Source: Cytophagales bacterium (GTDB lineage: Bacteria; Bacteroidota; Bacteroidia; Cytophagales; UBA9547). Taken from it: DNA of 64,000 nucleotides. Made by a program: the position numbers and the translations under genes. Where the stretch lies: contig REAG01000117.1 of the NCBI GenBank assembly GCA_004294265.1, positions 540 to 64,539 of the forward strand, in the 5' to 3' direction. The notes beneath the pieces were generated by a model that was given only the letters and a program-made list of their open reading frames with translations, was not told where the DNA came from and made no database searches. Of this stretch, positions 560 through 62,304 are shown one piece after another (the stretch's first letter is position 1; each line of letters opens with the position of its first letter).

Positions 560-3500
560 ATGACAACGCAACAATATATTGACAATATAAACAAACGCTA
601 CAAACTTGGAAATGCAACCGAGCATACTTTTCGTGGCGATTTGCAACAACTTTTAGAAAGTTTAGTGCCTGAAATAAGAGCGACCAACGAACCTAAAAGA
701 CAATCTTGCGGAGCTCCTGACTACATTCTGACCAAAAAAGAAATTCCAGTTGGTTTTATAGAAGCCAAAGACATTGGCGACAAAGACCTTGAAGGAGCTA
801 AGAAAACTGGAAATAAAGAACAGTTCGACCGCTACAAGGCTTCGCTAAACAACTTAATTTTTACCGATTATTTAGATTTCCATTTATATATTGATGGCGT
901 TTTTATTACAAAAATCGCTATTGCTGAAATTTCTCCCTCTCCTTTGGGGAGAGCTGGAGAGGGGGTTATCGTTCCCCTGCCCAACAACTTTGCAACTTTT
1001 ACAAATCTCATCAAAGATTTTTGTACACACGTTGGGCAGACCATAAAAAGTTCAAAAAAACTAGCAGAAATAATGGCAGGCAAAGCCAGATTACTTTCGG
1101 ATGTGATTGAAAAATCTTTAACCAGTGACGAGACCCACAACGAAGACAGTACCTTAAAAGATCAAATGATTGCTTTTAGGCAAATATTAATTCATGATAT
1201 TACCCCCAAAGGTTTTGCCGATGTGTATGCCCAAACCATCGCTTATGGTATGTTTGCAGCTCGTTTGCACGACCCAACTTTGGAGACTTTTAGCAGACAA
1301 GAAGCAGCAGAACTTATTCCAAAATCAAATCCGTTTTTACGCAAACTGTTTGGCTACATAGCTGGTCCTGACATTGACGACCGCATAAAATGGATTGTAG
1401 ATAGTTTGGTAGATATATTTTTGGCTTGCAATGTTGAAGAAATTTTAAAAAACTACGGAAAGCAATTCACCTCCTCCTCTGGGGGAGGACGGGAGGGGGC
1501 TGACCCCATCATCCATTTTTACGAAACATTTTTGAGTGAATACGACCCAGCACTAAGAAAAGCAAAAGGCGTTTGGTACACACCGCAACCCGTAGTAAAT
1601 TTTATTGTACGGGCTGTAGATGATATTTTAAAAACAGAATTTGATTTACCACAAGGGCTTGCTGACACCAGCAAAACAAAAATAAAGGTTGATATTCAAG
1701 GCAAAAAAACAGAACAGGAAGTTCATAAAGTGCAAATATTGGACCCTGCCACGGGTACAGGAACTTTTCTTGCCGAAGTAGTAAAACATATTCATAAAAA
1801 GTTTGAAGGACAAAAAGGGATTTGGAGCAATTATGTAGAAAACGATTTATTGCCACGAATTAATGGTTTTGAGCTACTTATGGCAAGTTACGCCATGGCA
1901 CATTTAAAATTAGATTTGCTTTTAAATGAAACAGGTTATTCTCCCTCCCCGATGGGGAGGGCTGGGGTGGGGTTTCAACGCCTTCGAGTTTATCTTACTA
2001 ATAGTTTAGAAGAAAGCCACCCAGATACAGGAACTTTATTTGCAAATTGGTTAAGCACAGAAGCCAATGAAGCCAATCATATCAAGAGAGAAACGCCCGT
2101 AATGTGTGTCATTGGCAATCCGCCTTATGCAGTAAGTTCTACAAACAAAGCAACATGGATAGAAAAACTTACAAAAGATTATAAAAAAGGGCTGAACGAA
2201 CGAAATATTCAACCGCTTTCGGATGATTATATTAAGTTTATTCGTTTTGGGCAGCATTTTGTAGAAAAAAACGGCAGTGGAATTTTGGCATACATTTCTA
2301 ATAATAGTTTTTTGGATGGTATTATTCACCGCCAAATGCGTAAGAATTTATTAGAATGTTTTGACACTATTTATATATTGGATTTACATGGGAATATTAA
2401 GAAAAAAGAAATTTGTACCGATGGAAGTCCAGATCAAAATGTTTTTGACATTATGCAAGGTGTTTCTATCAATATTTTTGTAAAAACAGGCAAGAAAAAG
2501 CAAGGCGAATTAGGCAAAGTTTTACATATTGATTTGCAAGGAAAACGACAATTCAAGTTTGATTTTTTGCTCAATAATTCATTAAAATCTGTTAGTTGGA
2601 ATAATTTACAAAACGACAATTTAAGTTATTTTTTTAGTAATAAACAATTTGATACAAGTGGCGTGTATGAAAATGGATTTAAGCTGAATGAATTGTTCGG
2701 TGAAAACAACGCAGGTTTAGTAACTTCGAGAGATAGTTTTATAATTCAAAACTCTGAAAATGAAGTAAAAAAAACGACACAAGATTTTGCTTACTTAGAC
2801 TCTGAAATTGCACGCAGAAAATACAATTTAGGAAAAGATAGCCGAGATTGGACAGTTAAAAACGCTCAAAAAGATTTAATTGCCCATAATCTTGATACTC
2901 AAAATATCAAACCCATTTTATACAGACCATTTGACATAAAATATTTGTATTATACTGCCAAATCCAAAGGATTTATTTCATACCCAAGAAACGAAATATT
3001 AAGGCATTTGAAAAATGATAATTTTGCTTTAATAACAACAAGACTTTTAAGTTCAACTTTATTCAGCCACTCTTTTATAAGTAATATTTTTGTAGATAAA
3101 TGTACGATTTCTAATCGAGGAAAAGAAACTAATTATGTATTCCCACTTTATCTTTATCCAAAACCAATAAATGAAATTCAAGAAGATGATTTTCAAAACA
3201 AATTGGCTCGATTGGAAGAATCTAAAGTGATTTATGAAAGTGCAAAAAAAGCGTTTATTCAAGTTCAAAAAATGTTTTCGGCAGTTTCAAATCCAGATAA
3301 AGAATTACTTACTTATTATAATCAACAGGTTAAAAACTTAAAGAAACTAGAACTTGAAGTAGAAAAATTTAAAATTCAGCTAGCAAATTCACAAGCAAAA
3401 CCATTATTTGAATCTGAAATTAAACGTAAACCCAACTTAAACCTAGCAATTATAAAACAAATAGCAGATGCGCTAGGCATACCCACCATGTTACCCAACG

Positions 3501-4021
3501 GAGAAGCCCCCTTCGGGGGTTTGGGGGCTCTTGATATTTTAGATTATATCTATGCCGTTTTACATTCGCCAACATACCGAGAAAAATACAAAGAATTTTT
3601 AAAAATAGATTTCCCTAAAATACCTTATCCAAAAACCTATAAGGTCTTCGAAGACCTTATAGGTTTGGGCAGCCAATTAAGACAAATCCATTTATTAGAA
3701 AGCCCAACAATTGAAAAATACATAACGCAATATCCCGAAGATGGAAACAATGTAATTACAAAACCACGTTTTTCTCCCTCTCCTTCGGGGAGGGCTGGGG
3801 TGGGGCTTGTTTATATAAACGAAACTCAATATTTCGATAATGTTCCACAAATAGCTTGGGATTTTTATATTGGCGGTTATCAACCCGCCCAAAAATGGCT
3901 CAAAGACCGCAAGGATAAAAAATTAGAATTTGATGATATTTTGCATTATCAAAAAATCATAGTTGCTTTGACAGAAACGGACAGATTGATGAAAGAAATT
4001 GATAATATTGAGATTGAATAA
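560..4021 (+). CDS. Type IIG single-polypeptide restriction-modification enzyme (N-terminal PD-ExK nuclease, gamma-class N6-adenine methyltransferase, C-terminal specificity domain)
   Basis: Nuclease-like motif GAPDYIL...GFIEAKD. AdoMet motif I ILDPATGTGTFL and catalytic motif IV VIGNPPYAVSS. C-terminal YIYAVLHSPTYREKYKEFLKIDFPKIPYP...IGGYQPAQKWLKDRKDKKLEFDDILHYQKIIVAL resembles the Type ISP/IIG specificity-domain tail. The 1153-codon ORF is intact. Confidence 0.85.
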   Translation: MTTQQYIDNINKRYKLGNATEHTFRGDLQQLLESLVPEIRATNEPKRQSCGAPDYILTKKEIPVGFIEAKDIGDKDLEGAKKTGNKEQFDRYKASLNNLIFTDYLDFHLYIDGVFITKIAIAEISPSPLGRAGEGVIVPLPNNFATFTNLIKDFCTHVGQTIKSSKKLAEIMAGKARLLSDVIEKSLTSDETHNEDSTLKDQMIAFRQILIHDITPKGFADVYAQTIAYGMFAARLHDPTLETFSRQEAAELIPKSNPFLRKLFGYIAGPDIDDRIKWIVDSLVDIFLACNVEEILKNYGKQFTSSSGGGREGADPIIHFYETFLSEYDPALRKAKGVWYTPQPVVNFIVRAVDDILKTEFDLPQGLADTSKTKIKVDIQGKKTEQEVHKVQILDPATGTGTFLAEVVKHIHKKFEGQKGIWSNYVENDLLPRINGFELLMASYAMAHLKLDLLLNETGYSPSPMGRAGVGFQRLRVYLTNSLEESHPDTGTLFANWLSTEANEANHIKRETPVMCVIGNPPYAVSSTNKATWIEKLTKDYKKGLNERNIQPLSDDYIKFIRFGQHFVEKNGSGILAYISNNSFLDGIIHRQMRKNLLECFDTIYILDLHGNIKKKEICTDGSPDQNVFDIMQGVSINIFVKTGKKKQGELGKVLHIDLQGKRQFKFDFLLNNSLKSVSWNNLQNDNLSYFFSNKQFDTSGVYENGFKLNELFGENNAGLVTSRDSFIIQNSENEVKKTTQDFAYLDSEIARRKYNLGKDSRDWTVKNAQKDLIAHNLDTQNIKPILYRPFDIKYLYYTAKSKGFISYPRNEILRHLKNDNFALITTRLLSSTLFSHSFISNIFVDKCTISNRGKETNYVFPLYLYPKPINEIQEDDFQNKLARLEESKVIYESAKKAFIQVQKMFSAVSNPDKELLTYYNQQVKNLKKLELEVEKFKIQLANSQAKPLFESEIKRKPNLNLAIIKQIADALGIPTMLPNGEAPFGGLGALDILDYIYAVLHSPTYREKYKEFLKIDFPKIPYPKTYKVFEDLIGLGSQLRQIHLLESPTIEKYITQYPEDGNNVITKPRFSPSPSGRAGVGLVYINETQYFDNVPQIAWDFYIGGYQPAQKWLKDRKDKKLEFDDILHYQKIIVALTETDRLMKEIDNIEIE
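932..967. repeat. in-frame GC-rich palindromic insert, copy 1 (encodes SPSPLGRAGEGV)
   Basis: tctccctctcctttggggagagctggagagggggtt. Exactly 12 codons (codons 125-136), GC-rich in an AT-rich gene, with a pyrimidine arm and purine arm that can pair. Confidence 0.8.
1469..1504. repeat. in-frame GC-rich insert, copy 2, diverged (encodes TSSSGGGREGAD)
   Basis: acctcctcctctgggggaggacgggagggggctgac. It has the same CT-run followed by G-run architecture as copies 1, 3 and 5, but is diverged and its boundaries are approximate. Confidence 0.55.
1940..1975. repeat. in-frame GC-rich palindromic insert, copy 3 (encodes SPSPMGRAGVGF)
   Basis: tctccctccccgatggggagggctggggtggggttt. Exactly 12 codons (461-472). 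CCCTCCCC and GGGGAGGG form an 8-bp stem around the 3-nt loop gat. It lies between methyltransferase motifs I and IV. Confidence 0.85.
3500..3529. repeat. in-frame GC-rich palindromic insert, copy 4, short variant (encodes GEAPFGGLGA)
   Basis: ggagaagcccccttcgggggtttgggggct. 10 codons. CCCCC-ttc-GGGGG forms a hairpin, with an alternative AGCCCCC/GGGGGCT pairing. It resembles the 3' half of copy 5. Confidence 0.55.
3773..3808. repeat. in-frame GC-rich palindromic insert, copy 5 (encodes SPSPSGRAGVGL)
   Basis: tctccctctccttcggggagggctggggtggggctt. Exactly 12 codons (1072-1083), in the same orientation and reading frame as copies 1 and 3. Confidence 0.85.
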
Positions 4022-4115
4022 CTAAAATACTACAAATTATTTGTATAAATTTAAACAAAAATAAATACATTTACTGTATGAATCCTGCAAATAAAAAACA
4101 CAAAAATTAGAAAAT

Positions 4116-4830: not shown

Positions 4831-5008
4831 TTTTAAAACCGTTTAAATTTGCATTTTTTGAAATATACCAAACCCCCTATCACAGTTTTTGAGCAAGTTA
4901 TCATTTTTTAAGTTCAATATTCCAAAAGCTTATTAAATTGCAAAATGAATATCAAGCTCAAACAAATCCCAAATCAGCAAAAAGCTGAAGAGTTATCAAA
5001 ACTGTTAA
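4831..5008 (+). repeat. direct repeat A: duplicated recJ upstream region plus first ~22 recJ codons
   Basis: Aligns by eye to 6231-6407 with about 10 differences over ~175 nt. The alignment includes the ATG (4945 vs 6344) and MNIKLK(Q/P)IPNQQKAEELSK. Confidence 0.85.
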
Positions 5009-5070
5009 AAGAAATAGAAAATAGTTTAAGAGAAAATTATAATCTAAAATATAATTGTTTAGTATCATAA
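4945..5070 (+). pseudogene. recJ 5' fragment (41-codon leader ORF made by the duplication)
   Basis: Translates as MNIKLKQIPNQQKAEELSKLLKEIENSLRENYNLKYNCLVS*. The first ~20 residues match RecJ at 6344, then the sequence diverges. The TAA at 5068-5070 is 1 nt before the ATG of the next gene (taacATG). Confidence 0.55.
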
Positions 5071-5071
5071 C

Positions 5072-6073
5072 ATGCAATACATACAAGAAATAAAACAAAT
5101 ATTAGCCAATGCAAGGCAAAAAGCCTACACCGCAATCAATGCTGCTATGACAGAAGCATATTGGAAGATAGGCGAAAAAATAGTGCTGGAAGAGCAAAAC
5201 GGAAAAAATCGTGCAGCGTATGGTGAAAGTATTTTAAAAGATTTGTCTATTGCATTAACACAAGAGTTTGGTAAAGGGTTTTCGTATGCTAACCTACGTA
5301 ATTTTAGACAATTTTATTTAACTTATCCCGACCCAGAGATTTGCTACGCAGTGCGTAGCAAATTGACATGGACGCATCATCGTTTGATAATGAGAGTAGA
5401 AAATACGGATGCTAGAAATTATTATCTAAATGAATGTGAAAATCAAAATTGGAGCTCTAGGGTGTTGGAACGAAATATTAATACTTTTTACTATCAAAGA
5501 ATTTTATCTACCAATGCACAATTTCCTGCAACACAGATAAGGGAAATTGAAACTCAAAATATTAAAGATTTCATTAAAGACCCTTACATATTTGAGTTTT
5601 TAAATATAGAACAACCCCATTATGCAAAAGAGCTAGAAATAGAAACCGCATTGATTGAAAATCTACAATCGTTTTTGTTAGAATTAGGCAAAGGTTTTTC
5701 GTTTGTCGCAAAGCAATTCAGAATAAGCACAGAAACAAGTCATTTTTATATAGACCTGGTTTTTTACAATTACATATTGAAATGTTTTGTAATCTTCGAC
5801 TTGAAAACCACCAAATTAACCCATCAAGACGTGGGACAGTTAGATATGTATGTGAGAATGTTTGACGACTTGAAAAAGCAAGACAACGACAACCCCAGTA
5901 TTGGCATCTTACTCTGTGCCGAAAAAGATGAAACCGTAGTGAAATATTCGGTATTGGCAGAAAATAAACAGCTTTTTGCCACCAAATATTTACCTTTCTT
6001 ACCTACCGAGCAAGAACTGATTGCCGAAATTGAAAGGGAAAAACTAAGCATCAAACAAAAACAAAATGAGTAG
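5072..6073 (+). CDS. YhcG-like PD-(D/E)XK nuclease family protein (DUF1016)
   Basis: N-terminal ARQKAYTAINAAMTEAYWKIGEKIV..EQNGKNRAAYGESILKDLS, central IKDPYIFEFL and the nuclease core ELGKGFSFVAKQFRI...YIDLVFYNYILKCFVIFDLKTTKLTHQDVGQLDMYV are characteristic of YhcG/DUF1016. Confidence 0.85.
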   Translation: MQYIQEIKQILANARQKAYTAINAAMTEAYWKIGEKIVLEEQNGKNRAAYGESILKDLSIALTQEFGKGFSYANLRNFRQFYLTYPDPEICYAVRSKLTWTHHRLIMRVENTDARNYYLNECENQNWSSRVLERNINTFYYQRILSTNAQFPATQIREIETQNIKDFIKDPYIFEFLNIEQPHYAKELEIETALIENLQSFLLELGKGFSFVAKQFRISTETSHFYIDLVFYNYILKCFVIFDLKTTKLTHQDVGQLDMYVRMFDDLKKQDNDNPSIGILLCAEKDETVVKYSVLAENKQLFATKYLPFLPTEQELIAEIEREKLSIKQKQNE

Positions 6074-6230: not shown

Positions 6231-6407
6231 TTTTAAAGCCGTTTAAACTTGCATTTTTTGAATATACCAAACCCGCTATCACAGTTTTTGAGCGAATTAT
6301 CATTTTTTAGGTTCAATATGCCAAAAGCTTATTAAATTGCAAAATGAATATCAAGCTCAAACCAATCCCAAATCAGCAAAAAGCTGAAGAATTATCAAAG
6401 TTATTAA
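6231..6407 (+). repeat. direct repeat B: native recJ upstream region and 5' coding end
   Basis: Partner of 4831-5008. It continues into the full-length recJ ORF. Confidence 0.85.
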
Positions 6408-8041
6408 ATATCAATATTTTACTTTCAAACTTATTAATACAAAGAGAAATAGATAATTTTGAAAATGCAAAATCATTTTTCAGACCAAATCTAAATGAAA
6501 TTCACAATCCATTTTTGATGAAAAATATGGATAAAGCTGTGGAAAAAATAATAAAAGCCATCGAAAATAAAGAAAAAATATTAATTTATGGCGATTATGA
6601 CGTGGATGGAACTACTGCGGTTGCGTTAGTTTTTGATTTTCTAGGCAAATATCATACCCATATTGACTATTATGTTCCTGATAGATATACAGAAGGTTAC
6701 GGAATTTCAACTTTAAGTATAGATTTTGCAAAAGAAAATAATTTTTCGCTTGTAATAGCCCTAGATTGTGGCATTAAATCAAATGAAAAAATAAATTATG
6801 CTAACACTTTAGGAATTGATTTTATCATTTGCGATCATCACGAGCCAGGTGAAGAAATTCCAAAAGCGCTTGCCGTTCTTGATGCCAAGCAAAACGATTG
6901 TAACTATCCATACAAAGAACTTTCGGGTTGTGGCGTTGGGTTTAAATTAATGCAAGCATATTGTATTAAAAAAAACATTGAATTAGATAAATTATTTCCG
7001 TATTTAGATTTGCTTTGTGTAAGTATTGGAGCAGACATAGTGCCAATAGACGGAGAAAACCGTATTTTTTGCTATCATGGATTAAAAATAATCAATGAAA
7101 ACCCACGTTTTGGAATTAAATCTTTAATAGGAATATCAGGATTTAAAAAGCAATTTAAAATTTCAGACGTTGTTTTTAAACTCGCTCCTAGAATAAATGC
7201 CGCAGGAAGAATTCATCATGCGAAAGCTGCCATAAACTTACTCATTTCAAATACAGAAGAAGAAGCAGAAAAATGGGCTACAAAACTTAATGATAGTAAT
7301 ATTTACAGAAAAGAATTAGATAAAATAATCACAGAAGAAGCCATAGAAATGATAGAAAATCAAGTTGATTTTCTATCATTAAAATCAACAGTTTTATTTA
7401 AAAATGATTGGAACAAAGGCGTAATCGGAATTGTGGCTTCTCGTTGCATAGAAAAATATTATAAGCCAACCATTATTTTAACAGAATCTAACGGAATTGC
7501 AGCAGGATCGGCTCGTTCAGTTCATGGATTTGATTTATACAATGCCATTTCAAATTGCTCAGACTATTTAGCACAATTTGGAGGACACACCCATGCGGCA
7601 GGCATGACTTTAAAAATTGAAAATATTGAAAACTTTAGAAAAGCATTTGAAAAACAAGTTTCAAAAACAATAAAAGAAGACTCATTAACGCCACAAATGC
7701 TTGTCGATATGGAAGTTCCACTTTCATTTGTTAGTTTAAAAACAGAAAAAATAATTTCACAAATGCAACCTTTCGGACCAAAAAATATGACTCCCGTTTT
7801 TATTACTAAAGGATTAATTGACGGAGGAAACAGTCGAGTTGTAGGTGAAATTCATCTAAAATTAGATTTACATTGCCCCACTTCAAATATAAAAATTGCA
7901 GGTATTGCATTCCAAAAAGGAAATTTAATCAATCAAATTCAACAAAAACACCCATTTACAATCTGTTACACTTTAGAAGAAAATATATTTAACAATATTA
8001 AAACCGTCCAAGCTCAAGTCAAAGAAATCATATTTGAATAA
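6344..8041 (+). CDS. recJ: single-stranded-DNA-specific exonuclease RecJ
   Basis: DHH-family motifs GDYDVDGTTA, LDCG and ICDHHEP, plus the DHHA1 motif FGGHTHAAG. 565 aa. Confidence 0.95.
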   Translation: MNIKLKPIPNQQKAEELSKLLNINILLSNLLIQREIDNFENAKSFFRPNLNEIHNPFLMKNMDKAVEKIIKAIENKEKILIYGDYDVDGTTAVALVFDFLGKYHTHIDYYVPDRYTEGYGISTLSIDFAKENNFSLVIALDCGIKSNEKINYANTLGIDFIICDHHEPGEEIPKALAVLDAKQNDCNYPYKELSGCGVGFKLMQAYCIKKNIELDKLFPYLDLLCVSIGADIVPIDGENRIFCYHGLKIINENPRFGIKSLIGISGFKKQFKISDVVFKLAPRINAAGRIHHAKAAINLLISNTEEEAEKWATKLNDSNIYRKELDKIITEEAIEMIENQVDFLSLKSTVLFKNDWNKGVIGIVASRCIEKYYKPTIILTESNGIAAGSARSVHGFDLYNAISNCSDYLAQFGGHTHAAGMTLKIENIENFRKAFEKQVSKTIKEDSLTPQMLVDMEVPLSFVSLKTEKIISQMQPFGPKNMTPVFITKGLIDGGNSRVVGEIHLKLDLHCPTSNIKIAGIAFQKGNLINQIQQKHPFTICYTLEENIFNNIKTVQAQVKEIIFE

Positions 8042-8042
8042 A

Positions 8043-8271
8043 GGGAACCTCTAAAAACCCCAATATTATTTTTAAAAACCCCACCCAAACCCTCCCCAAG
8101 TGAGAGCAATGTCGTTAAGTTAAGATGCTCGAAAGTCCCTCCCCCTTTTTGGATTCTGCGTCTTCGTAGCAGAACTTGGATTTAGGGAGGGGTTTAATGA
8201 AAGTAATTTCTTTAACTTAACGACATTGCAAGTGAGAGAGCTTCATCGGAATTGAATTTTTAGGAGTTCAC
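8043..8271 (+). repeat. MITE-like GC-box element, composite/nested long copy (229 bp)
   Basis: Its ends match the 119-bp family (gggaacctctaaaaacc...tttttaggagttcac). The interior is a 122-bp unit bounded by an 18-bp perfect inverted repeat (8106-8123 / 8212-8229) and a 10-bp direct repeat caagtgagag (8097-8106 / 8229-8238). That unit carries an inverted second copy of the family core hairpin. Confidence 0.75.
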
Positions 8272-8281
8272 TAAATACAAA

Positions 8282-34090: not shown

Positions 34091-34209
34091 AGGAACCCCT
34101 AAAAACCTCCATTCCGTTAAAGCCCTCCCACTTGGATTCTGCGGTTTCGTAGCAGAAATTGGTTTGGGTGTGGTTTTTAAAAATAATATTGGGGTTTTTA
34201 GAGGCTCCC
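34091..34209 (-). repeat. MITE-like GC-box element, 119-bp copy (reverse orientation)
   Basis: aggaacccctaaaaacc...ggtttttagaggctccc. It aligns over its full length (about 85% by eye) to the reverse complement of 62186-62304, including the core hairpin ggattctgcggtttcgtagcagaa. Confidence 0.85.
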
Positions 34210-37148: not shown

Positions 37149-37182
37149 AAACCTATAAGGTTTGAAAAAAACTTATAGGTTT
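37149..37182 (+). terminator. hairpin after TA pair 1
   Basis: 11-bp stem aaacctataag / cttataggttt with a 12-nt loop, 11 nt after the stop codon. The T-tract is weak. Confidence 0.4.
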
Positions 37183-37439
37183 TAATACTTGTTCTTATTT
37201 TTAGTCCCCAAACTAAATCTCAATAGAAGTAAATCTCTAACGTGTTCATCATTAAACAAAATCCAACCTTATTTTACATACAAAAATAAGTCTTTAATTT
37301 GTTTTTCGATGGTTTATATTTTAAAATTGCAAATATAAAAGTTTTGTAGTATATTGTATTTATAGCTTTCAACTTACAAGAACTTTCTATACAAACGAAG
37401 GCAAATAGGAGCAAAATTAACAAATTTCAAAATAATATT

Positions 37440-56604: not shown

Positions 56605-56699
56605 GTGAACCTCTAAAAACCCCAATATTATTTTTAAAAACCCCACCTAAACCAATTTCTGCTACGAAACCGCAGAATCAAAAAGCAGGGGGACGTTCC
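56605..56699 (+). repeat. MITE-like GC-box element, truncated copy (~95 bp)
   Basis: gtgaacctctaaaaaccccaatattatttttaaaaaccccacctaaaccaatttctgctacgaaaccgcagaatc is near-identical to the left two-thirds of 62186-62304. The right arm is degenerate. It starts on the base after the TAA of the epimerase gene. Confidence 0.8.
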
Positions 56700-62185: not shown

Positions 62186-62304
62186 GGGAACTTCTAAAAA
62201 CTCTAATATTGTTTTCAAAAACCCCACCCAAACCAATTTCTGCTACTAAACCGCAGAATCCAAGTAGGAGGGATTTATCGGAATTGAGGTTTTTACGAGT
62301 TCCC
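62186..62304 (+). repeat. MITE-like GC-box element, 119-bp reference copy
   Basis: 16-bp imperfect terminal inverted repeats, gggaacttctaaaaac and (reverse complement) gggaactcgtaaaaac. Internal GC boxes ccccaccc and ggaggg flank the hairpin ttctgc-tactaaacc-gcagaa. Confidence 0.85.

Follow-up and report, generated by a model that had tools for sequence, protein, structure and literature searches.

A candidate intrastrand-triplex repeat translated in frame within a restriction-modification gene of a Cytophagales bacterium

Introduction

A class of G/C-rich bacterial repeats, earlier named BoxC or the PIT element and later TM_ECO, carries a pyrimidine arm, a purine arm and a reverse-Hoogsteen third arm in succession on one strand (Hoyne et al. 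2000; Holder et al. 2015, PMC4666352). Here we report on a 64-kb stretch of DNA from a Cytophagales bacterium (contig REAG01000117.1), referred to as the window, in which a module resembling these repeats is translated in frame at up to five positions of a gene for a single-chain restriction-modification enzyme and probably recurs, in a worn form, inside an intergenic element. The sense strand of the host gene is taken as the (+) strand. The explanation that we favour, with a probability of roughly 0.78, is that the module is a member of this known and widespread class of G/C-rich class II intrastrand-triplex repeats.

The TM_ECO pattern, 5'-CCCTCNCCC N3-6 GGGNGAGGG N3 GGGNGAGGG-3', has been found 3,610 times in 262 proteobacterial genomes, and cyanobacteria also hold many G/C-rich triplex motifs (PMC4666352). 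The isolated strand of the E. coli relative is a very stable triplex with a melting temperature of 70-82 degrees C, and nuclear magnetic resonance (NMR) showed that it is not a quadruplex (PMC4666352). No promoter or terminator activity was found for the E. coli repeat, which goes together with variability of the surrounding sequence (PMC4666352); folds of this kind stall polymerases and have been linked to deletions and rearrangements nearby. In the ITxF class II definition the stems are 6-15 nt and the loops 1-6 nt in length, at most one mismatch is allowed, the triads are G.G and A/T.A, and the third arm lies antiparallel to the purine arm (PMC4666352). These repeats have been known for about 30 years, and the earlier literature has centred on intergenic copies in Proteobacteria and Cyanobacteria.

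The module described here agrees with BoxC, PIT and TM_ECO in the order and composition of its arms, in its G/C-richness starting with CCCTC, in the size of its loops, in its occurrence as inverted pairs in other genomes, and in having no associated mobility genes. The window copies differ in possessing 8-nt arms with a single A/T position, as opposed to 9 nt with NGA, in having an AT-rich Bacteroidota genome as host, and in that one copy lies inside an element resembling a MITE (miniature inverted-repeat transposable element). They also lie in frame inside a gene, whereas TM_ECO is reported to be always intergenic in E. coli MG1655 (PMC4666352).

Anatomy and identity of the repeat

On its G-rich strand the module is made up of the pyrimidine arm CCCTCCCC, a loop of 3-8 nt, the complementary purine arm GGGGAGGG, a loop of 2-3 nt, and the third arm GGGTGGGG. 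The last of these is a mirror image of the purine arm in which T or A faces the purine-arm A. The module has no terminal repeats of its own and is much shorter than the MITE-like elements. An intergenic pair between entC and fepB of E. coli fits the TM_ECO pattern and is 86% identical to insert 3 over 35 nt.

The window was screened using an ITxF-like finder of our own, which accepted G.G and A/T.A triads in stems of 6-10 nt with no more than one mismatch. It detected four G/C-rich motifs of class II, all of them on the (+) strand and inside the gene, at 937-962, 1470-1499, 1943-1972 and 3776-3805, and none in any of 100 shuffled windows in which composition was kept in 200-nt blocks. Inserts 1, 2, 3 and 5 therefore fall within the ITxF three-arm definition; insert 4, with only 5 triads, lies below the 6-nt threshold of the finder, and its membership in the repeat is doubtful. 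When folding was limited to Watson-Crick pairs, an 8-bp hairpin was predicted in inserts 3 and 5.

From 17 equal-length copies, drawn only from other species, we made a covariance model and searched the window with filters off; the resulting E-values are rough. Inserts 3, 5 and 1 were strongly recovered and the segment at 8076-8107 and insert 2 weakly, while insert 4 and the canonical 119-bp intergenic element did not reach significance (Table 1). No further loci were found in the 64 kb, the remaining entries being reverse-strand readings of the same hairpins. A profile search had been proposed in the original prediction, a set of notes made from the letters of the window.

Table 1. Positions of the restriction-modification gene, its inserts and the MITE-like elements in the window, with covariance-model matches and the homologues that carry an insert at the same site.
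Feature	Position	Strand	Description	Covariance model	Homologues with insert
Host gene, single-chain restriction-modification enzyme	560-4021	+	largest window open reading frame; houses all five coding inserts
Insert 1	932-967	+	12 codons, SPSPLGRAGEGV; arms CTCTCC / GGAGAG / GAGAGG at 937-962; 6 triads, 0 mismatch	932-967 (+), 22.5 bits, E 9e-5	P0024; P0005 (decayed)
Insert 2	1469-1504	+	TSSSGGGREGAD; worn; arms CCTCCTCC / GGGGGAGG / GGAGGGGG at 1470-1499; 8 triads, 1 mismatch	1470-1488 (+), hairpin only, 14.5 bits, E 0.03	P0068
Insert 3	1940-1975	+	SPSPMGRAGVGF; perfect: CCCTCCCC, GAT, GGGGAGGG, CTG, GGGTGGGG at 1943-1972	1940-1975 (+), 43.7 bits, E 2e-11	P0112, P0068, P0045, P0086
Insert 4 (membership doubtful)	3507-3527	+	CCCCC, TTC, GGGGG, TTT, GGGGG; 5 triads	3506-3529 (+), 9.2 bits, not significant
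Insert 5	3773-3808	+	SPSPSGRAGVGL; CCCTCTCC, TTC, GGGGAGGG, CTG, GGGTGGGG at 3776-3805; 1 mismatch = G-T pair	3773-3808 (+), 42.6 bits, E 5e-11	P0112, P0068
Intergenic segment, probable worn copy	8076-8106	-	CTCTCAC, TT, GGGGAGGG, TTT, GGGTGGGG, TTT	8076-8107 (-), 14.7 bits, E 0.02
Composite intergenic element	8043-8272	+	119-bp-family left arm, triplex module, nested element, worn right arm
Nested MITE-like element, 122 bp	8107-8228	+	18-bp terminal inverted repeats CAATGTCGTTAAGTTAAG / TTTAACTTAACGACATTG, 17/18 bp matching
Canonical 119-bp MITE-like element	34091-34209	-	both terminal repeats; fold z = -2.25
Truncated 119-bp-family copy	56605-56690	+	left terminal repeat, CCCCACCTAAACC box, hairpin only
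Canonical 119-bp MITE-like element	62186-62304	+	both terminal repeats; CCCCACCCAAACC box at 62221-62233	62219-62265 (-), 8.6 bits, not significant

The same prediction had held that the intergenic segment at 8076-8106 (AAACCCCACCCAAACCCTCCCCAAGTGAGAG) shares a module with the in-frame inserts. The sequences given for this segment and for the reverse complements of 1940-1975 and 3773-3808 were found at those coordinates. Formal local alignment of the segment with the reverse complement of insert 3 gave 21/23 identical positions followed by divergence; that with insert 5 upheld the 27 identities over 31 nt, but there are two 1-nt gaps, one per sequence, where a single gap had been counted. The similarity also exceeds that of composition-matched shuffles: the scores of inserts 3 and 5 were reached by 0/20,000 mononucleotide and 0/5,000 dinucleotide shuffles of either insert, and by 0/20,000 when both partners were shuffled. 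Insert 1 matches the segment less well (its score was reached by 31/20,000 mononucleotide and 123/5,000 dinucleotide shuffles).

When all of the window was scanned with 8076-8106, inserts 3 and 5 scored highest apart from the segment's match to itself. The degenerate 19-mer GGGGAGGGYTKGGGTGGGG has exactly three exact matches, at 1954(+), 3787(+) and 8079(-), and 0 in 100 shuffled sequences. When the window was scanned for 30-nt stretches with at least 63% G+C, the only islands of the module type were the five in the gene and that at 8078-8108.

Several other identities for the module were considered and rejected. There is no T-run rule as for a Rho-independent terminator and no array as for a CRISPR repeat; a site based on Shine-Dalgarno or anti-Shine-Dalgarno pairing had no supporting evidence, and an assembly or poly-G artefact is contradicted by the occurrence of the motif in complete genomes. 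A literature search for the exact module sequences found no paper, and one for in-frame palindromic elements in Bacteroidetes turned up nothing specific.

The coding inserts

The product of the open reading frame (ORF) at 560-4021 is 100% identical to the entry "MAG: DNA methyltransferase [Cytophagales bacterium]" (MAG, metagenome-assembled genome). It has Pfam matches to Type_ISP_C, Eco57I, N6_Mtase and MmeI_Mtase, the domains being an N6-adenine methyltransferase followed by a C-terminal Type ISP specificity domain. An N-terminal PD-(D/E)XK-like nuclease motif can, in our reading of the translation by eye, be proposed as well. Relatives in the PDB are LlaBIII (4xqk), 7lo5 and LlaGI.

The coding copies are translated as Ser/Pro/Gly-rich stretches of the type SPSPxGRAGxG. 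The presence of inserts was judged by alignment with 13, and then with 40, homologues. Inserts 1, 2, 3 and 5 are extra residues relative to most homologues, insert 2 being an 8-codon insertion; insert 4 replaces homologous residues and leaves the length almost unchanged. Since most homologues are without them, inserts 1, 2, 3 and 5 are regarded as insertions. In a low-confidence structural model (mean pLDDT 63.8, pTM 0.39) all five are predicted to fall in coil that separates secondary-structure elements.

Among the 120 best homologues the peptide PSPxG(R/K)xGxG occurs in six, in every case in the same frame and at site 1, 3 or 5. These carriers share only ~66-72% identity with the window protein and among themselves, are no closer to it than are the insert-free homologues, come from unrelated samples, and have their genes in different neighbourhoods. 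The same inserts at the same codons of homologues this divergent argue that the modules came with the gene and not from the local MITE-like element. The residues flanking an insert also track its state (QRL versus QRF at site 3; RF...INE versus KY...IND at site 5), which points to inherited alleles rather than repeated hits. In other lineages the inserts are decayed (P0005, P0086, P0002 and P0024) or absent.

The likeness is greatest in the DNA. Insert 5 is identical to its counterpart in P0112 at 34/36 nt and insert 3 at 32/36, as against 70% for the rest of the gene. Where window, P0112 and P0068 have an identical residue, the codon is the same in 60/63 cases within the inserts and in ~53% in the rest of the gene. 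The codons are also foreign to this genome, GGG making up 10/13 of the Gly codons in the inserts and 4% of those in the other ORFs of the window. The proposal that the coding segments arrived as DNA and did not evolve as protein sequence is accordingly sustained, through their absence from most homologues, their foreign codons and the conservation of their synonymous sites.

A homologue from a different phylum, in a Methylococcales MAG (L083, 5358-8000), contains at least five translated modules of the triplex type, in both orientations, with the peptides SPSPRGRGE, LPSPSGRGVGGEGE, PLTPLPEGEGNKE, TPTLPQKGREQ and LPSPLGRGVGGEGD. The same gene has an inserted region that appears, by sequence, to resemble the DUF559 nuclease insert of homologue P0068. 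In another homologue, P0051, other repeat-like peptides (GHDPLP, REHAPLP and TRGHDPLPFG) occupy the same loops at sites 3, 4 and 5 and in a variable region; it seems that these permissive positions are used by GC-rich repeats of several kinds.

A second kind of repeat may likewise have been written in frame into the restriction-modification gene: at 3633-3666 there is a near-perfect AT-rich palindrome of 34 bp (AAACCTATAAGGTCTTC|GAAGACCTTATAGGTTT), which has a relative at 37149-37183. It is translated as KTYKVFEDLIGL, where homologues have KDxxTFWQLVKL.

Distribution among genomes and agreement of the third arm

The exact 19-mer was searched for in one genome per species and in the viral contigs of IMG/VR, and at least 120 loci were obtained from each. 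The genome matches listed are from Alpha-, Beta-, Gamma- and Deltaproteobacteria, Chloroflexota, Planctomycetota, Ignavibacteria, Armatimonadota and others. Cyanobacteria among them are Microcoleus, Chamaesiphon, Tychonema, Nostoc and Scytonema, and Bacteroidota are Prevotella, Muribaculaceae, Mucilaginibacter, Pontibacter, Prolixibacteraceae, Saprospiraceae and another Cytophagales MAG. The pyrimidine arm CCCTCCCC, with at most one mismatch, lies 2-12 nt upstream of the 19-mer in 108/122 of the listed genome matches (89%) and in 95/126 of the listed viral matches (75%), versus ~2% at random control positions. Copies in other low-GC genomes are mostly intergenic, with a few in mid-ORF.

Many of the genome matches stand within a few dozen bases of the end of a contig (for example in L042, L028, L037, L033, L055 and L113), and the 3.8-kb contig L042 has copies close to both ends. 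This crowding indicates that the repeat breaks short-read assemblies, which implies a high copy number in those genomes.

The agreement between purine arm and third arm was counted on copies in the fetched loci that had not been selected by the scan pattern. Purine arms with a single A are accompanied by a third arm with a single A or T in 64 cases, as against two interrupting bases in 6, and those with A-G-A have (A/T)GA in the third arm in 22/22. The interrupting base is T or A, both of which are allowed in purine-motif triads, and almost never C. In homologue P0045 all three arms at site 3 have changed together (CCTTCTCC / GGGGAAGG / GGATGGGG), and every triad is still allowed except for one G-T pair. 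Within the window, too, the arms differ in concert, being CTCTCC / GGAGAG / GAGAGG in insert 1 and CCCTC(C/T)CC / GGGGAGGG / GGGTGGGG in inserts 3 and 5. As read from these sequences, the agreement is consistent with constraint on the potential to form a triplex.

The intergenic elements

Segment 8076-8106 is best read as a worn copy of the triplex repeat, the sixth in the window, forming the core of the element at 8043. Its purine and mirror arms are intact (8079-8097); its pyrimidine arm, CTCTCAC, shows three mismatches to CCCTCCCC. It falls outside the ITxF three-arm definition, and no stable hairpin is predicted for it. For the copy at 8043 the pyrimidine arm was read as CTCTC(T)C, and the 25-nt hairpin of the family is absent. 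The composite element lies between convergent recJ-like and tatD-like genes (Pfam); its left terminal repeat is exact (8043-8059) and the right one has about five mismatches, counted partly by eye.

The nested element at 8107-8228 is flanked by a 10-bp direct repeat, CAAGTGAGAG, at 8097-8106 and 8229-8238, so that it stands within the stretch of the triplex module formed by pyrimidine arm and loop. With terminal repeats, small size, no ORF and a flanking duplication it has the features of a MITE. Its interior is an inverted relative of the 119-bp core (CCCTCCCCC, the TTCTGC/GCAGAA hairpin, GGGAGGGG), the hairpin match being at 8154-8174 on the minus strand, and its DNA fold is -25.6 kcal/mol (z = -6.7).

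The canonical core, on the G-rich strand, reads CCCTCCC, ACTTGG, a 25-nt TTCTGC/GCAGAA hairpin, GGTTT and a mirror-like arm, given as GGGTGGGG for the core in general and as GGGTGTGG for the copy at 34091. Pyrimidine-like and mirror-like boxes are therefore present, and the hairpin occupies the place of the purine arm; only one of the four 119-bp-family copies, that at 8043, has a purine arm. The box CCCCACCC(A/T)AACC is found, as had been noticed, in the copies at 8043, 56605 and 62186, with the variant CCACACCCAAACC in the reversed copy at 34091. For the copies at 34091 and 62186, which have both terminal repeats, no target duplication was identified. The MITE-specific parts, namely the terminal inverted repeats and the 25-nt hairpin, are not found in the restriction-modification gene, and metagenome scans for the 119-bp left arm and for the hairpin gave no matches.

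Both the 119-bp and the nested elements resemble MITEs in their terminal inverted repeats, lack of coding capacity, long stem-loops and location between or 3' of genes, the nested one also in its 10-bp flanking direct repeat. The triplex module falls outside the definition of a MITE and is cargo or target in these elements, not the mobile unit. Each of the four 119-bp-family elements stands immediately 3' of a gene; three are found where two genes converge, and that at 56605 starts 1 base after a stop codon; such positions would fit a possible terminator-like or transcript-end role. In another Cytophagales MAG, with 29% GC (L049), elements at 394-553 and 1-126 have terminal repeats similar to those of the nested element (CAGTGTTGTTAA(A/G)TTCT). 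Because the ends of MITE-like elements abut triplex repeats both there and in the window, the repeats are suggested as insertion targets, and they may serve in this capacity as REPs do for some insertion sequences (REP, repetitive extragenic palindromic sequence).

Neighbouring genes

The window has a G+C content of ~30%, and the products of its remaining ORFs include GldL/M/N, PorP, alternative complex III, cytochrome oxidase, GroEL, HtpG and DnaE, from which it is taken to be ordinary Bacteroidota chromosome. No transposase, integrase or RAYT (REP-associated tyrosine transposase) domain was found in ORFs of at least 120 amino acids across the 64 kb. With Rfam at gathering thresholds the whole window gave a tRNA-Pro alone, and region 800-4100, with E up to 5, gave chance eukaryotic matches only.

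Close 3' of the restriction-modification gene is a gene for a YhcG/DUF1016 PD-(D/E)XK nuclease (5072-6073). Direct copies of a 178-nt sequence, 87% identical, stand on either side of it (4832-5009 and 6231-6408), and may represent a cassette-like arrangement or a duplicated upstream region.

Discussion

Membership in the class of intrastrand-triplex repeats is supported in the present data by the three-arm anatomy, the over-representation of the motif, the conservation of the arms across phyla, the match between third and purine arms, the position of the coding copies in frame and in predicted loops, and, in some lineages, the retention at the DNA level. By analogy with the E. coli repeat, the first two arms would pair as a Watson-Crick hairpin whenever the strand is single during replication, transcription or repair, and the third arm would lie in the major groove of the hairpin through G.G:C and T.A:T or A.A:T triads. 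Transient folding of this type on single-stranded DNA would cause stalling, precise loss and rearrangement. Coding copies that survive would be those with a length that is a multiple of three and no stop in any frame, and would have landed in permissive loops of a dispensable, horizontally moving gene. On this reading the inserts entered the gene family as DNA insertions before the lineage split from several ~70%-identical homologues, and have been kept at the DNA level in some lineages and decayed or been lost in others; a second MITE-like element has landed in the worn copy at 8043.

A number of points weigh against this interpretation. The triplex of E. coli was demonstrated only on isolated single strands, no stable triplex having been detected in vivo (PMC4666352), and folding of the 8-nt-arm variant is predicted from that relative. 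The window copies, with arms CCCTCCCC / GGGGAGGG / GGGTGGGG, fall outside the strict TM_ECO / BoxC pattern because these are 8 nt and not 9 nt long, and the clear copies are all in frame inside ORF 560-4021 although TM_ECO is defined as intergenic. A G-quadruplex motif, too, can be read in the G-rich half of inserts 3 and 5 and of 8079-8097. Few codons underlie the synonymous-site tests, with single-pair p values of 0.002-0.05 from pairs that are not independent. Agreement between third and purine arms could partly reflect a few clonal subfamilies and not selection, and a mirror arm cannot be cleanly separated from a direct repeat because the arms are nearly homopolymeric. Lastly, segment 8076-8106 is without a proper pyrimidine arm, and its E of ~0.02 comes from a model whose E-values are rough.

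Of the alternatives, an unlikely one is that the module is a REP/REPIN-like hairpin, moved by an HUH/RAYT-type transposase encoded elsewhere, with the third arm as a recognition or cleavage tag. REP/REPIN sequences (Di Nocera et al. 2013, PMC3733652; Bertels and Rainey 2011, PMC3116915) are likewise short G/C-rich hairpins, often occur as inverted pairs, lie 3' of genes, are sometimes wholly within ORFs and translated (PMC3733652), and are insertion targets for other elements. The close inverted pairs of the module at many proteobacterial loci are as in REPINs, and the many matches at contig ends are expected of a high-copy repeat. Against this, neither the window copies nor the 120 listed genome loci have a GTAG or CGTC tag, and their flanks are variable; the search of window ORFs for RAYT, transposase and integrase domains described above was negative; and Holder et al. 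(2015, PMC4666352) found no genes for mobility in the vicinity of the copies in E. coli. REP families are, moreover, usually lineage-specific, whereas the module is nearly identical across phyla; the module also differs in having a third, mirror arm.

Somewhat less probable still is the view, put forward in the original prediction, that the coding inserts and the 119-bp elements make up a single repeat family in this genome, the coding copies being fragments of the MITE-like element, or a mobile sub-module of it, that spread within the genome through transposition or gene conversion. A module is truly shared, since 8076-8106 matches inserts 3 and 5 far beyond chance; the CCCCACCC(A/T)AACC box recurs across the intergenic copies, with its variant in 34091; and MITE-like elements adjoin triplex repeats in the Cytophagales MAG L049 too. 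That part of the proposal stands. A private family, or a piece of the 119-bp element, does not: the module is a pan-bacterial repeat whose coding copies came with the gene, the same codons holding inserts in ~66-72%-identical homologues from unrelated samples. The gene is without MITE-specific parts, the canonical 119-bp copies go unrecognised by the triplex-repeat profile, and the metagenome scans for the two MITE-specific patterns gave nothing. As the arms are identical to copies in many other species (at least 120 loci), identity here is no proof of descent within the genome.

We give a similarly small chance to the module acting, in DNA or mRNA, as a G-quadruplex or as a switch between hairpin and quadruplex, with the unit GGGG-A-GGG-YT(K)-GGG(G)-T-GGGG. 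Inserts 3 and 5 and the minus strand of 8079-8097 contain the four-run motif G3+ N1-7; the G-rich strand is the sense strand in all coding copies, so that the mRNA carries the G-rich sequence; and purine-motif triplexes do not form in RNA (PMC4666352). Inserts 1, 2 and 4, however, are without four G3 runs and yet keep the three-arm layout, and the pyrimidine arm, for which a quadruplex has no need, is present in 75-89% of the listed copies. The G-runs are broken in P0045 while triad compatibility stays, and the NMR data for the E. coli relative are those of a triplex (PMC4666352).

No more probable is the idea that triplex repeats are kept as near-identity islands, or as pause or break sites, which would let ~70%-identical alleles recombine and exchange segments, the target-recognition region included. 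Which homologues share inserts is not predicted by how similar they are overall. Identity of the window protein to P0112 is 92% downstream of insert 5 and 41-81% elsewhere, and the protein is 83-89% identical to P0002 over the first 700 residues and 58-73% thereafter; this mosaic points to recombination among alleles, with breakpoints possibly near the inserts.

That the SPSPxGRAGxG stretches were selected as protein features such as flexible linkers or modification sites, the DNA likeness being incidental, is very improbable: they share one reading frame and orientation in the window and among the 120 best homologues (six proteins) and lie in predicted loops, but their synonymous positions are conserved, their codons are rare in this genome, the same DNA is intergenic in many phyla, other homologues do without an insert at these loops or have a decayed or unrelated one there, and the Methylococcales homologue L083 has copies in both orientations.

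Two further systems invite comparison with the triplex repeat. The Rickettsia palindromic elements (RPE; reportedly described by Ogata and colleagues in 2000, and summarised in PMC3733652) are similar in being palindromic repeats found in frame in genes and tolerated at the protein surface, and differ in their length of ~100-150 bp, restriction to Rickettsia, unrelated sequence and absence of a triplex layout. The small dispersed repeats (SDR) of cyanobacteria, reportedly described by Elhai and colleagues in 2008, are said to be hairpin repeats of ~20-30 nt, nested in repeats and inside genes. By that description they are likewise tiny hairpin repeats; their sequences are different and they are reportedly not described as triplex motifs.

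The triplex-repeat class itself and the presence of REP-type repeats inside genes (PMC3733652) were already known. What is new is the AT-rich Bacteroidota host, the multiple translated copies in one restriction-modification gene family, the retention of these copies at synonymous sites, and the link with MITE-like elements. For annotation, Ser/Pro/Gly-rich loops in the proteins of AT-rich genomes can be repeat-derived DNA, and identity between such segments is no proof of movement within that genome. Orthologous copies in divergent homologues can be used to test selection on triplex-forming potential itself, and, if the repeats did act as islands for recombination among alleles, this would be natural evidence of in vivo selection on intrastrand-triplex repeats.

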